Program-made: the position numbers and the translations under genes
Source of the DNA: a virus
Lineage: Duplodnaviria > Heunggongvirae > Uroviricota > Caudoviricetes
Direction: 5' to 3' (one strand)
Length of the DNA stretch: 30,982 nt
IMG/VR virus record: IMGVR_UViG_2563366805_000002
Shown: positions 21,215-29,940 of the stretch, piece after piece
How the letters are laid out: every line of letters begins with the position of its first letter
Position numbering within the stretch: the first letter of the stretch is position 1
Notes under the pieces: generated by a model
Database searches by the model: none
The model's input: the letters and a program-made list of their open reading frames with translations, nothing else
What the model was told of the DNA's origin: nothing

Positions 21215-21485
21215 GATGTTACCGTAGTATGTGAGTATCCATCGAATAGACACCAAGCCAAAAAGCTCCCGAAGGAGCCTTCATTTTCACTTTTTTAAAT
21301 CCAACGACAGACGGCTGGCATTTAAGTATTGTGAAATATTATCAAATGTAATCATCATTGATTTACAAAAGATACATTTTGCCCCGAAAGGATTCATGTC
21401 AGAAACATCAAAAGATGATGTTCTATACTGGGAACCATGACAACACGGGCATCTAAAGTGAATATGGTTTGTAATATTGTCTACC

Positions 21486-21698
21486 TCAAAGCGCCACTAC
21501 ATGAACAGCGGCAGGACCTTTAGGTCCGTTCTCAATACCAAATTCAACTTCCTGATTCTCAGTTAATGTTTTGAAATCGTTGCTCTGAATTGCTGAGAAA
21601 TGGACAAACACATCTTTGCTGCCATCTTTCGGCGTGATGAAACCAAAACCTTTTTCAGGGTTAAACCATTTTACTAAACCAGTCATTTTGTTAGACAT
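21486..21698 (-). CDS. cspI: Cold shock protein CspI-like (CspA family)
   Basis: 70-aa [41 protein letters not shown] with RNP1/RNP2 motifs; matches E. coli CspI as I recall it. Confidence 0.85.
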
Positions 21699-22048
21699 AA
21701 TTATTACCTTTTGAAGAAATTAGCCCTTGGGCAGAATGGTCCGAAAAAAAATATCAGAGAGAAAAACCAACAAGGAAATCTCAAGAGGTACAAATAATAA
21801 AATTATAACAATGACTGCTTCAGATAAATTTGTAACAAACCAGAACACCATTAACGCATGATTAACCACCCATAGCAAGGATTACTTTTGTAAAGAAAAA
21901 CACAGCAATGAAAGAATAGCTTTATTTATTAATAAAACGTGTCATTCTGATTAAGACCTTTTATCTTACCCTTAAGATTTCAGGAATTTTGGCTCATGGA
22001 AGAGTCCTTTTTATTTAAATTTTACATTCCGCGGGTAATGACTCCAAC

Positions 22049-23764: not shown

Positions 23765-24045
23765 GAGATTGTGGTGCTTTTTGTGGGAGTCATCCACTTA
23801 CGCACTTTGTTTTGCCATGCCAGCAGTTAGCTTCTGCTGTAAAACTATTCATGCAGCAAACCTGCACTTCACCACAATGGTTAGCATACTTTTCCTGATT
23901 AAGATTTTGCCAAATATGCTGGCCATTGTTTCATGTATTGGACCTCCTTAATTTTTATTAAAGAAATCCAATATTCACTACTCTGTCCGTATCTCTACTC
24001 AGGCATCAGCCTTCTTCGTTATCGTATACAGACGAGCGATGAATT

Positions 24046-24261
24046 TTAATCAGTAATGATGACATTTGCTGCTGCAGGACCTTTAGCACCACTCTCTATA
24101 GAGAAGGTAACCTTTTGACCTTCAAATAAGGTTCGATAATTATCATTCTGAATCGCAGAAAAATGCACAAACACATCTTTACTACCATCAACAGGAGAAA
24201 TAAAGCCGAAACCTTTATCAGCGTTAAACCATTTTACTAAACCAGTCATTTTATTTGACAT
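24046..24261 (-). CDS. cspB: Cold shock protein CspB-like
   Basis: 71-aa [56 protein letters not shown]...; matches E. coli CspB as I recall it. Confidence 0.85.
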
Positions 24262-24561
24262 TCTACATTCCTTAACTTGAGCCTTTCGGCATAAATGGTT
24301 TGCATAACAGAAACGACTTCGTACTTAATTGGAGAGACTCAAAGAAGGAATAAGTGAATAACACCTGAAATGAGAACTGCTTTAGTAAACTACTTCGTAT
24401 ATCGTCTGTTCTTCAAACCGACGCAATCATTAACGCATAGTTGAACATATGAAGCAATGTTTATTTTAGACATCCAGCCATCTTCAACCCCATCAAAAAA
24501 CTATAGCTTTCTTCAGGAACGTGTGTATAGTGCGCCAAGTTATCAGTATTAAGGAATTTTT

Positions 24562-25961: not shown

Positions 25962-27010
25962 TTACGCCAGTACGCCAATTGCCAGCGCGCGATCGATAAA
26001 ACGAAATATCAGCTCCAGTTGGGAGCCATACTTCTCTTCAAATGCCACTGTATCCGTATGCAGCTCGTTGTGATGCTTTCTGCACAAAGGCAACACAAAG
26101 AGATCATGTGCTTTTGTTCCCATTCCGCCCTGCCCGTGACCAATCAGATGATGCGGATCGTCGGCTGGCATACCGCAGCAAGCATACGGCTGTGTCTTAA
26201 CCCAGCGTGTGTATTTCTCCTTAACCCACCGGTGACGTTTAGGCAGCTTCATGAAAGATTCCGGAGACTCTGGATCAACGGTGATGCTTACCACCGTCTT
26301 TTCCTGTGATGGGTTTTGTTGCTGGTGGGCGTGAGGCAACGGTGCAAGATTTTTTGTGCGCTGTTTCAATATGCTGGTGGCGGTCTGCTCTCCCGGTACG
26401 ATGTCGCTTTCGCGGTACACCGAGCAGATTTTTTCCGCTGGTAATCCCAGCGAGCGACGTAATACCGCTTCCGGTAGCGCGTCCGCCAGCTGATTGCGGA
26501 CCGCCCACCAGGAAATTCAGCCAGAGATAATTCACGCTCCTGCGTACCGCTTATTGCGTGACCGATGACGTCAATCATCCATGCTGACAGGTTTTGATGA
26601 GCAAGTTGCTCGAGTGATTCGGATGTCTGGTCACGCAGCTGGTTGTCGCAGTGCCAGCACAACACCATTGCGCCGGTACCATATCGGTGAATAACGGTTT
26701 CGCTGTGATGATAATCGCCGTGTGGCCACTGGCAGGATTTAATATGGCGCAACAGCCAGTCAGACAATGCACCAGCACCACCAGCAGCACGAATTACCCG
26801 TGTGTTACTGAAAAACGGCAGCAATGTTTTGTCTTCCACCAGCGGCTGGCGAACGGCAGGAACGACCCCGGACGGCAGATTACGCATGCTTTTCGGTTCC
26901 GGCTCCACCAGTACCCGGGTATTGTGGAATACCGGCATGGATTCACGGCCCGGCTTAACGACCACCAGCCCGAGTTCCGGTACCAGAACAGGTCGAAGTA
27001 ATACCCGCAC
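25962..27010 (-). pseudogene. ydfU: YdfU-like (DUF968) gene split by a 1-nt frameshift
   Basis: Two overlapping minus-strand ORFs (26366..27010 and 25962..26420) in different frames; the combined span of 1049 nt is one short of 1050 (349 codons plus stop), matching the K-12 YdfU length as I recall it. A T6 run at 26429-26434 lies in the overlap zone. Confidence 0.5.
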
Positions 27011-27290: not shown

Positions 27291-27662
27291 CGGTTGTCTC
27301 TGCTGGCGCAGCAGGTGCCAGTTGTTCAGGCTGGCGTATAAAGTATAAATAAACTGGTTCCAGTGTAAAGCCCCTACATTAATGGAATAAAAGTCAAACA
27401 ACAGATTGTTGGGATAAACACAACGCTTATTATTAAAAGCGATTAGATAAATTAAATTTTAATGTTATGCAATTTTACCAGATCACCATAACATCTCGTT
27501 TGAAACCACCAAAACAACAACCATATCAATATTGATTATGTTAAAGTGAGTAAATATGGAAAACAACAAATCTGCACATTACGCTCCTTTTTTATCTGTG
27601 ATACTTTTTGTTTTATGCTGTGTGTGGGCATTATTTTTATAAAAATATTTACAGATAAAATA

Positions 27663-27680
27663 AACCCGCCGAAGCGGGTT
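27663..27680 (-). terminator. Rho-independent terminator downstream of hokD
   Basis: AACCCGC-cgaa-GCGGGTT hairpin; on the minus strand it is followed by TTTATTTTAT. Confidence 0.5.
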
Positions 27681-27748
27681 AAGTGCGGGTGCATTGAGGA
27701 TGCCTGACACATCAGAGGTGGCGAGGGATTTCTCCCTCGCCTGGTCTC

Positions 27749-27904
27749 TTACTCCTCAGGTTCGTAAGCTGTGAAGACAGCGACCTCCGTCTGGCCGGTT
27801 CGGATTCGTACCTCGCAGAGGTCTTTCCTCGTTACCAGTGCCGTCACTATGACGGTTAAACAGATGACGATCAGGGCGATTAACATCGCCTTTTGCTGCT
27901 TCAT
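27749..27904 (-). CDS. hokD: Hok-family type I toxin (HokD/RelF-like)
   Basis: 51 aa MKQQKAMLIALIVICLTVIVTALVTRKDLCEVRIRTGQTEVAVFTAYEPEE; SD AAGGAGAAG about 6 nt upstream. The ORF track shows an in-frame 19-codon upstream extension. Confidence 0.85.
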   Translation of the reverse strand: MKQQKAMLIALIVICLTVIVTALVTRKDLCEVRIRTGQTEVAVFTAYEPEE

Positions 27905-28519
27905 AGCCTGCTTCTCCTTGCCTTTCGGCACGTAAGAGGCTAACCTACATGTGTCTAGCATGAAATTGGCCTCAGATTAATGTTAAGCGTCTTGCAGGAC
28001 GCGTAATGTCAACTGGGGCTTTTCTCTATCTGCCTTTGGTGTTCATGCCTGAGGCAGATAGCCTCAAGCACCCGCAGCAATTCTACTTAACTCACGTCAC
28101 CTCGCCAATATAAAATCAATCAGAAAGGCGATCCGTAAGAACAACAGCAAGACAATAAATTGCCATTACAGCCGCAATAGCTAGCGCACATTTGAGAACC
28201 AGCACGACAACCTCCTGTATTGGACGTACACCAGTCCTGATAAATATGAGGCTGTCTCATCATTGATTCAATATAACTATTGGGTATAGTTTCTGTGATT
28301 TTGTTCTGTAGAAATGGAACACAACAACCAGTCTCCACCAGCACTTCTTTAAATACGCCAAGTCCGACGCAAGCTAACCTTCTAGTCCGCTTTGAGCGAA
28401 CTGTGGAAGCTCGCAAATGTTGTTACATCTGATGAAGGCATTACTCAAAGGAGGGGATAGTAGTCAACGTGGAGCAGGCCATGTTAGTATTTTTATACAA
28501 TTCGACTAAGGGAAAAACA

Positions 28520-28708
28520 ATGAGGCTTTACATAATAGGAAATGGATTTGACATGCGTCATGGCTTACCAACAGGATACAAGCACTTTAAGTCGTATGTA
28601 GAAAAAAATGACCAAGATCTATATGACGCGATAGAAGAATACATTCCTGCTGGGGACGAGTGGAATGAGTTAGAAAATGCTTTAGGTGAAATTGATTATG
28701 AGCTTTGA
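28520..28708 (+). pseudogene. AbiH-like abortive-infection gene, N-terminal 62 codons only (cut by IS3)
   Basis: MRLYIIGNGFDMRHGLPTGYKHFKSYVEKN... carries the N-terminal IIGNGFD...HGL motif I associate with the AbiH family (Pfam PF14253); the stop codon TGA at 28706-28708 is the first three bases of the IS3 terminal repeat. Confidence 0.5.
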
Positions 28709-29150
28709 TCCTACCCACGTAATATGGACACAGGCCTAAGCGAGGTTCTTGTTTTCAAATTGTTCCGGACTGAGGCCGCCACACCAACTGTGCCGCCGCC
28801 ACCGATTGTAATCACATTCGATATAATTAAACACCGTTGCCCGCATTATTTCCCGGCTGATAAAGTGTTCTCCATGGATACATTCCACTTTCAGCGAATG
28901 AAAGAAGCTTTCCACGCAGGCATTATCGTAGCAGCAACCTTTTGCGCTCATACTTCCACGCAGATTATGCCGCTTCAGTTGCGCCTGATAATCTGCTGAA
29001 CAGTACTGGCCTCCACGGTCCGTGTGAACGATAACGTTCCGGGGCCTCTTACGCCGCCACAGCGCCATCTGCAGGGCATCGCAGGCCAGTTGCGCCGTCA
29101 TGCGTGGCGACATTGACCAGCCAATAACGGCACGTGACCACAGGTCAATG
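28706..29150 (-). mobile_element. IS3: IS3 fragment (terminal ~445 bp including the right inverted repeat)
   Basis: TGATCCTACCCACGTAATATGGACACAGGCCTAAGCGAGG terminal sequence at 28706; encodes the InsF C-terminus ...[13 protein letters not shown]; IS3 homology stops abruptly at 29150. Confidence 0.85.
28736..29150 (-). pseudogene. insF: IS3 transposase InsF (orfB), C-terminal portion only
   Basis: Residues ...[49 protein letters not shown]... including the DDE-domain region; the N-terminal part is replaced by the IS629-like element. Confidence 0.8.
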
Positions 29151-29202
29151 TGAACCGCCCCGGTAATCCTGGAGACTACACTCTTTGAGAGAGGTAACCA
29201 GG

Positions 29203-29526
29203 ATGACAAAACATAACCGATTTCCCCCTGAAGTTCGTCAACGCGCTATTCGTATGGTTCTGGAAAACCAGAATACCTACAACTCACAATGGGCCGCTAT
29301 CTGCTCCATTGCCCCTAAGATCGGCTGCACTCCCGAGACATTGCGTATCTGGATCCGTCAGCAGGAGCCCGTTGATGATGAGCAGAATGCGCTGACTGCC
29401 AGCGAACGCCAGCGTCTGAAAGAACTGGAGCGGGAAGTCCGCGAGCTGCGCCGCAGCAATGATATTCTGCGTCAGGCTTCAGCGTATTTTGCCCAGGCGG
29501 AGCTCGACCGCCACTGGAAAAAATAA
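29203..29526 (+). CDS. IS3-family transposase OrfA (HTH)
   Basis: [54 protein letters not shown]... with a leucine-zipper-like C-terminus; related to IS629 OrfA. Confidence 0.8.
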
Positions 29527-29940
29527 TGCCGCTTCTGGAAAATCTGAGCGGTGAACACGGGGTCGGGCCAGTCTGTCATGAGCTGGATATTGCTCCGTCA
29601 ACGTACTACTGGCATCAGCAACGCCGGAAGTGTCCTGAACGACGCAGTAGTCGGGATAAACGCGATGCCGTGCTGATACCTGAGATACAGCGCGTATACG
29701 AAGAAAACTACAGCGTTTACGGTGTGCGTAAGGTCTGGCGACAGCTAAAACGTGAAGGTGTCGGCGTTGCCCGCTGCACCATTGAGCGCCTGATGAAAGC
29801 CCTGCAGCTACGTGGGGTGACACGCGGCAAAAGTGTCAGAACCACCCGCAGCAACAAAGCCGAAACACCGCAGGATCGGGTGAACCGGCAGTTCGTGGCT
29901 GAACGGCCCGATAGTCTTTGGGTGGCCGATTTTACCTACG
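29526..29940 (+). CDS. IS3-family transposase OrfB, 5' portion (interrupted after ...LWVADFTY by the intron)
   Basis: The frame reads ...RPDSLWVADFTY and then enters intron sequence at 29941; the ORF-track residues after this (GVPGVQGEHGC...) are intron-encoded read-through. Confidence 0.7.

Follow-up and report, generated by a model that had tools for sequence, protein, structure and literature searches.

A hokD gene in a Qin-like Escherichia coli prophage is very probably part of a complete, canonical hok/mok/sok locus

Identification of the locus

Analysis of a 30,982-nt stretch of DNA (the window) indicated that its hokD gene very probably belongs to a complete and canonical hok/mok/sok type I toxin–antitoxin locus of the prophage hokD/hokW subfamily, carried by a Qin-like lambdoid E. 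coli prophage (Table 1). It has the replication region of the prophage on one side and the Q antiterminator gene on the other. It is an ordinary form that has already been described, and it offers no novel reading. When the region was searched with Rfam, model RF01794 matched the hok strand from 28073 to 27899 along its full length (model positions 1–157), with 119.5 bits where the gathering score is 59. As this model is oriented in the hok sense and ends at the hok AUG, the match marks the leader of the hok mRNA and not the Sok strand. The family nevertheless bears the name 'sok antitoxin', although the last positions of its match are the hok AUG itself. Weak Rfam matches to ceN48 (24 bits) and rsmX (23.5 bits), as well as a plus-strand 'sok' match (18 bits, E = 0.35), were taken as chance hits or echoes of the palindromic hairpin.

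The RefSeq annotation of this region contains the hokD CDS only, with no mok or sok feature, and leaving these out makes a guarded toxin look like an orphan. A sequence-only reading had framed the gene in just this manner, as an anomalous toxin without its usual operon and perhaps without an antitoxin. On such an account hokD would have lost relBE along with any antitoxin, would be either silent or dangerous, and a 9-bp inverted repeat upstream of it might be the site of a regulatory protein. The hokD-only annotation and the true absence of relBE both agree with an orphan gene; however, the Sok gene and its promoter, mok, tac, ucb, fbi and the terminator all align base-for-base with annotated sokW and sokC loci, and we regard this explanation as barely credible. 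That same reading had proposed alignment with known hok/sok/mok loci as its check, and had named intact mok and sok elements as the outcome that would tell against it; once the alignment was run, the full leader and the mok and sok elements were found to be present and intact. It had also reasoned that the gene must be silent or a regulator must be present, and it is the regulator that stands. For annotation, the value of these results is that the 'hokD'-only label omits mok and sok in thousands of E. coli genomes. Their value as discovery is small: this RNA-regulated toxin family is among the best studied, its nearest relative here, hokW-sokW, has been experimentally characterized, and the difference from K-12 has been published.

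Table 1. Features of the hok/mok/sok locus, numbered from the first nucleotide of the window
Feature	Position (strand)	Description	Basis
hok	27749–27904 (−)	ATG at 27904, stop 27751–27749; 51 codons	ORF list, K-12 identity, Pfam
hok SD	27919–27914 (−)	AAGGAG; 9 nt upstream of ATG	
UACG, hok codon 47 (Tyr)	27763–27766 (−)	Corresponds to published TadA A-to-I site	Read from sequence
mok	27749–27973 (−), including SD	ATG at 27961; 70 codons, MLDTCRLASYVPKGKEKQA + Hok	ORF list, homology
mok SD	27973–27970 (−)	GAGG; 8 nt before ATG at 27961	
Predicted Sok RNA	27953–28023/28029 (+)	71–77 nt	sokW/sokC alignment, folding
Predicted Sok promoter	27918–27946 (+)	−35 TTGCCT (27918–27923), 17-nt spacer, −10 TAACCT (27941–27946)	Sequence, 933W identity
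Predicted hok/mok promoter	28080–28108 (−)	−35 TTGGCG (28108–28103), 17-nt spacer, −10 TAGAAT (28085–28080)	Promoter scan, 9/12
Predicted full-length hok mRNA	27655–28073 (−)	∼415–420 nt; 5′ leader, mok/hok coding region, 3′ UTR with fbi and terminator	
tac (translational activator)	28062–28073 (−)	GGGUGCUUGAGG; mRNA 5′ end	
Stem containing inverted repeat	28026–28061 (−)	Predicted 10-bp helix, 28061–28052 with 28035–28026	
ucb (upstream complementary box, anti-SD)	28013–28021 (−)	AAGCCCCAG; GCCCC nearly invariant in homologue alignment	Pairing in folds
dcb (downstream complementary box)	27934–27940 (−)	GCCUCUU; complementary to mok SD	R1 homology
fbi (fold-back inhibition)	27687–27699 (−)	CCUCAAUGCACCC; 12 pairs with tac, one bulged U	
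Intrinsic terminator of hok mRNA	27663–27680 (−)	AACCCGCUUCGGCGGGUU, then U-run	Terminator scan

The hok gene and the overlapping mok frame

With regard to the toxin gene itself the earlier description was accurate: hok is an intact ORF preceded by a good SD, and its coding sequence is 100 % identical to that of K-12 hokD over the full length. The encoded protein matched Pfam family PF01848 (HOK_GEF) with 82.9 bits, where the gathering score is 22. The NCBIfam Hok models gave scores below their curated cut-offs (48.5 vs 73), and membership of the Hok family is therefore based on Pfam and on identity to HokD. The HokD peptide is among the listed toxic controls of a recent study (bioRxiv 10.1101/2025.08.07.668861).

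The mok frame has its own SD, overlaps hok and is in frame with it, with no stop codon between the two; it is through translation of mok that hok is presumed to be controlled. Its start at 27961 is the position to which the annotated starts of mokW (933W) and mokC (K-12) both align, whilst the hok starts of these loci align to 27904. The 70-aa Mok protein belongs to a cluster of 900 members, and the in-frame layout is also found in K-12 mokC and in many homologues. The hok SD was partly paired in the folds of the full-length and the 3′-truncated mRNA alike, which is consistent with dependence of hok on mok translation. At codon 47 of hok, the sequence TACGAA is nearly invariant in the homologue alignment; TadA A-to-I editing is known to recode this Tyr to Cys in hokC/D/E transcripts, with 6 % editing in K-12 hokD (PMC12214031).

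The predicted Sok antisense RNA

In canonical loci the antitoxin would be expected on the opposite strand upstream of hok, as had been pointed out previously, and that is where the predicted Sok RNA lies. The 5′ ends of annotated sokW (933W) and sokC (K-12) both align to 27953, and their 3′ ends to 28023 and 28029, respectively. As for sokW and sokC, the predicted fold consists of a 15-nt single-stranded 5′ tail, GUCUAGCAUGAAAUU, a long terminator hairpin (27968–28020) and UUUU, and the tail is antisense to the mok AUG and start region. Homology and folding thus point to a cis-encoded Sok with its own promoter, tail and terminator hairpin that overlaps mok.

The Sok promoter, which matches the sigma-70 consensus at only seven of 12 positions, was not reported by our promoter scan and was placed by homology. 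By our own count the well-studied Sok promoter of plasmid R1 scores the same 7/12. Between mok codon 4 and the hok AUG, a stretch of 52 nt that includes the Sok −35, spacer, −10 and +1 is identical to that of 933W, and in Sp5 mutation of the sokW promoter abolished antitoxin activity (PMC8621323). Whilst the promoter is identical, the predicted Sok 5′ tail (27953–27968 (+)), and with it its target, differs from that of 933W sokW at six of the first 16 nt. Since E. coli genomes carry a median of two such loci (see below), these mismatches could conceivably insulate co-resident copies from cross-silencing.

We also observed a hairpin insertion of ∼16–18 nt (GCGUCCUGCAAGACGC, hok strand) at 27985–28005, in the loop of the stem-loop that holds ucb and the mok SD; on the other strand it forms part of the Sok terminator and lengthens Sok to ∼71–77 nt. 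This hairpin is present in the hokD/hokW subgroup (17 of the 50 aligned sequences), and absent from the hokC, R1 and Photorhabdus loci.

Control elements and predicted folds of the hok mRNA

Transcription of hok is predicted to start at ∼28073, which is also where the RF01794 leader model begins, and the −10 element and first transcribed bases are conserved in 933W, mEp460 and K-12 hokC. The corresponding 419-nt RNA had a minimum free energy (MFE) of −178.3 kcal/mol (z = −8.7 vs shuffles). In the fold of the full-length RNA, tac was predicted to pair over a long range with fbi, and the GCCCC of ucb to sequester the GAGG of the mok SD. With the last 45 nt removed, tac switched to ucb in the model and the mok SD became unpaired. 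The first 44 nt folded alone gave a tac-sequestering hairpin (GGGUGCUUGAGGC/GCCUCAGGCAU, −19.8 kcal/mol), as would be expected of a metastable 5′ structure in the nascent transcript. Metastable, full-length inactive and truncated active conformations have been described for R1 hok (PMC9841398), and all three are thereby reproduced in silico for the hok mRNA of the window. The dcb element, GCCTCTTAC, was nearly invariant among 51 homologues; the predicted MFE structures, including that of the truncated RNA, did not show the pairing with the mok SD that the R1 model gives it.

The inverted repeat and covariation of the leader

The 9-bp inverted repeat is a stable stem of the 5′ domain of the hok mRNA, and is neither an operator nor an element of Sok. 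The repeat, TATCTGCCT/AGGCAGATA, is perfect, as had been stated, and its first arm is at 28027–28035; the second arm had been misplaced by 10 nt, and is found at 28052–28060 rather than 28062–28070. It is homologous to the CUUUCUGCC/GGCAGAAAG stem of plasmid R1 hok. We estimate that ∼0.2 perfect 9-bp inverted repeats are expected by chance in ∼320 nt (0.06 with arms within 50 nt), and given that chance occurrence is not rare, the repeat by itself is weak proof. Its reality follows instead from conservation and compensatory substitutions among homologues.

For the comparative test we aligned 47 non-redundant homologous loci, one genome per species, from Escherichia, Shigella, Photorhabdus, Pantoea, Erwinia, Kluyvera, Citrobacter and other genera, along with those of 933W, K-12 hokC and an R1-type plasmid. 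The alignment was produced with MAFFT, which is blind to structure, and on its 51 homologues we scored the MFE structure of the window itself. Standard pairs were formed in 83.7 % of cells, compared with ∼41 % (38–44 %) in controls in which the 3′ partner was slid by one to three columns; because the scored structure came from one of the aligned sequences this measure is favoured, whilst the compensatory counts are less affected. Of these, pairs changed on both sides numbered 68 (34–49 in slid controls), and the covariation score was 0.173 (at most 0.079 in slid controls). Not one of 500 shuffles reached the observed value for any measure. The two tac/fbi helices (helices 1 and 2) were 92 and 85 % paired, with pair 4/475, for example, occurring as UA in 29 sequences, CG in 14 and UG in five. 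The repeat stem (helix 3) was likewise 92 % paired in the 51 homologues: one of its pairs was AU in 33, UA in seven, GU in six and GC in two, and another was UG in 31 and CG in 17. Compensatory substitutions across genera speak for selection on the RNA fold within the family, though not necessarily in this copy.

The U-G wobbles in the repeat stem pair only in RNA of the hok sense, so that neither a DNA palindrome nor a structure on the plus strand can be the feature under selection. We accordingly rejected the repeat as a DNA operator, and with it the protein-binding site envisaged for an orphan hokD, as the wobbles suit a helix in hok-strand RNA and not a protein-bound palindrome. A role as the Sok terminator was rejected on the same grounds, and also because the plus strand has no T-run after the repeat.

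Near-identical E. coli-type hok loci were also observed in records titled Veillonella, Xanthomonas, Acinetobacter, 'Scatousia' and Haemophilus (L012, L016, L044, L056 and L059). Most of these records are short contigs or metagenome bins, and contamination or mis-binning is a more probable source of the loci than a true host.

Absence of relBE and the K-12 form of hokD

In K-12, relB and relE do lie upstream of hokD, as stated in the sequence-only reading, and its observation that both are missing here was borne out by tblastn with RelB and RelE, which gave no match at E < 0.01 anywhere in the 30,982 nt but did find them in L002, L018, L020 and L049. Where that reading erred was in taking the K-12 arrangement as the reference form, as the comparison runs in the opposite direction. 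A search for the 221-nt leader, with coverage of at least 80 % required, detected it in 4281 of the 5426 complete E. coli genomes, with a median of two copies and up to 10, whereas the relE-hokD junction of K-12 is present in 1166 of the 5426. The leader-bearing form is thus the common and ancestral one and the K-12 form a derived minority, as has already been published (PMC6379469); relBE is an insertion restricted to a minority of genomes, which also counts against an orphan hokD. According to that publication (Front Genet 2019, citing Ramisetty & Santhosh 2016), integration of relBE shortened the ancestral hokD ORF from ∼70 codons to 51.

Hok and its coding sequence are identical in K-12 hokD (relF, of the cryptic prophage Qin), the 3′ UTR with fbi and the terminator is nearly so (a few substitutions), and the neighbourhood of ydfU, ydfT and cspB/F is the same. 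In contrast, the entire leader, comprising the hok promoter, tac, ucb, Sok and the mok start, is missing from K-12, and relBE stands in its place. Similarity to the window begins only ∼14 nt before the ATG, so that the K-12 gene keeps the hok SD, ORF, fbi and the downstream terminator and represents a truncated form. Another publication likewise describes K-12 hokD as inactivated by rearrangement (PMC12214031). K-12 is a misleading reference for hokD.

Prophage context and a neighbouring small ORF

The window is a Qin-like lambdoid E. coli prophage that is 99.9 % identical over ∼25 kb to strain C 236-04A (NZ_CP109924). Its gene order is tail, head, terminase, cspI, cspB/F, ydfT (the Q antiterminator), ydfU, hokD, a truncated AbiH gene, a pile-up of insertion sequences and a group II intron; the prophage is defective, its early region having been replaced by the insertion sequences and the intron. 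In a near-identical genome ydfU (DUF968), just downstream of hok, is annotated as frameshifted and a tail assembly gene is interrupted by a stop codon (window ∼25962–27010 (−); L005 4160–4702), both of which fit a decaying prophage. Next to hok/sok and divergent from it is an AbiH (abortive infection) gene (28520–28708 (+)) that is cut after 62 codons by remnants of an IS3-family transposase (28736–29939); an ALIL frameshift pseudoknot is located at 29481–29597, and intact relatives have a 909-bp AbiH gene at the same position. A reverse transcriptase gene of a group II intron extends from ∼30612 onward. Elsewhere in the window, leaders of the cspA thermoregulator type were detected upstream of the cold-shock genes cspB and cspI of the prophage, at 24030–24422 (−) and 21459–21844 (−) (158.8 and 115 bits, respectively).

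Immediately upstream of the hok promoter we observed an unannotated hydrophobic ORF of 29 codons, MLVLKCALAIAAVMAIYCLAVVLTDRLSD (28116–28205 (−)), with a GTG start, GGAGG 5 nt upstream of it, and a stop 8 nt before the hok −35. The frame is open in E. ruysiae (L009), mEp460 (L007) and two metagenome bins, and it differs from that of L009 by three synonymous and three conservative non-synonymous substitutions. Its DNA occurs in 1556 of the 5426 E. coli genomes, where it has no RefSeq feature, and a few GenBank records give it as a 34-aa 'membrane protein'. Searches of Pfam and NCBIfam gave no match. It is improbable that this ORF specifies a genuine small membrane protein working with hok/sok, for example as a further toxin or by modulating Hok, in a prophage defence or addiction cluster that also contains AbiH.

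Proposed mechanism and activity of this copy

By analogy with the paradigms of hok/sok of plasmid R1 and hokW-sokW of Sp5, the locus would be expected to operate as follows. A constitutive promoter would produce a hok mRNA of ∼415 nt, and a local hairpin would hold the 5′ tac as long as the transcript is nascent. Once transcription is complete, tac would pair with fbi at the 3′ end and ucb would cover the mok SD, giving a stable RNA that is neither translated nor bound by Sok. Slow trimming of the 3′ end would then remove fbi, upon which tac would switch to ucb and the mok ribosome-binding site would open. As long as the short-lived Sok is made from the opposite strand (27953 to ∼28023), its 5′ tail would pair with the mok start region, block translation of mok and hence of hok, and trigger cleavage by RNase III. 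Should Sok no longer be made, because the element is lost, transcription is shut off, the prophage is induced or a phage attacks, the pool of processed mRNA would be translated, and the resulting Hok would depolarize the inner membrane. Killing upon Sok depletion, cleavage by RNase III and 3′ processing are known from the relatives hokW-sokW (PMC8621323) and R1 (PMC9841398).

The activity of this particular hok copy is uncertain. One explanation is that the locus, although structurally intact, is an inert relic with weak transcription or none, unable to kill and present as a passive passenger in a decaying prophage, which is what others have proposed for further chromosomal hok loci. The state of its host would suit such a relic, given the AbiH gene cut by an IS3-family remnant, the pile-up of insertion sequences, the group II intron and the frameshifted ydfU. 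In addition, published tests of chromosomal hokA, hokB and hokC are reported in a preprint to have given neither post-segregational killing nor activation by rifampicin (bioRxiv 10.1101/2025.08.07.668861), from which it is clear that an intact structure does not prove competence for killing. In disagreement with an inert relic, however, all of the cis elements are intact and the family shows compensatory substitutions across genera. Moreover, no disruption affects the promoter, tac, fbi or terminator, in contrast to K-12 hokC, where IS186 takes the place of the 3′ end, and to K-12 hokD, with its leader lost, and the close relative hokW-sokW is active (PMC8621323). On balance we consider an inert relic rather unlikely. 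For a canonical hok/mok/sok locus in this setting, stabilization of the prophage remnant or the exclusion of other phages are possible roles.

Comparison with known hok/sok systems

Amongst known systems, the locus is 97 % identical to that of phage mEp460, and 93.8 % identical over 417 nt to mokW/hokW/sokW of 933W, and equally so to that of VT2-Sakai/Sp5. In 933W/Sp5 (AF125520, which annotates mokW, hokW and the SokW antisense RNA) the order of tac, stem, ucb, Sok, mok and hok is the same, as is fbi, and there too a 70-codon in-frame mok and a 51-aa Hok are carried by a lambdoid prophage. The C-terminus of Hok differs, being …FTAYEPEE here and a variant tail in HokW; from the −35 region upstream the two sequences are unrelated, and the AACCCGCUUCGGCGGGUU terminator, which directly follows fbi here, is lacking in 933W. 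HokW is toxic, and is neutralized by sokW expressed from its own promoter, with contributions from RNase III and Hfq (PMC8621323; Takada et al. 2021, Toxins 13:796). In Sp5, hokW-sokW led to faster lysis and doubled phage release after induction (PMC8621323); as the host prophage is defective here, this induction-linked role in lysis may not apply.

Plasmid R1 (parB) is more distant, but its tac (GGCGCUUGAGG), stem (CUUUCUGCC/GGCAGAAAG), GCCCC ucb, GAGG mok SD, dcb (GCCUCUUAC), AAGGAG hok SD and 3′ fbi are all alignable with those of the window. In R1 the mok frame differs from that of hok, whereas here, and in hokC and hokW, the two are in frame, which yields an N-terminally extended Hok. The window further differs from R1 by the extra GCGUCCUGCAAGACGC hairpin in the ucb/SD stem-loop and by a shorter loop of the 5′ stem. 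The Hok proteins themselves are only distantly similar, and HokW and R1 Hok share 44 % identity (PMC8621323).

The chromosomal hokC/mokC/sokC locus of K-12 (gef) has the same tac and the same stem, an in-frame mokC of 69 codons and a sokC 5′ end at the same base. It differs in lacking the GCGUCCUGCAAGACGC insertion and in the −10 of Sok, which is CACTCT rather than TAACCT. Finally, IS186 is located ∼20 bp past the hokC stop, and the 3′ end no longer aligns with the fbi of hokC-type loci from other Escherichia species (L025–L031), which fits the published view that K-12 hokC was inactivated by an IS insertion.
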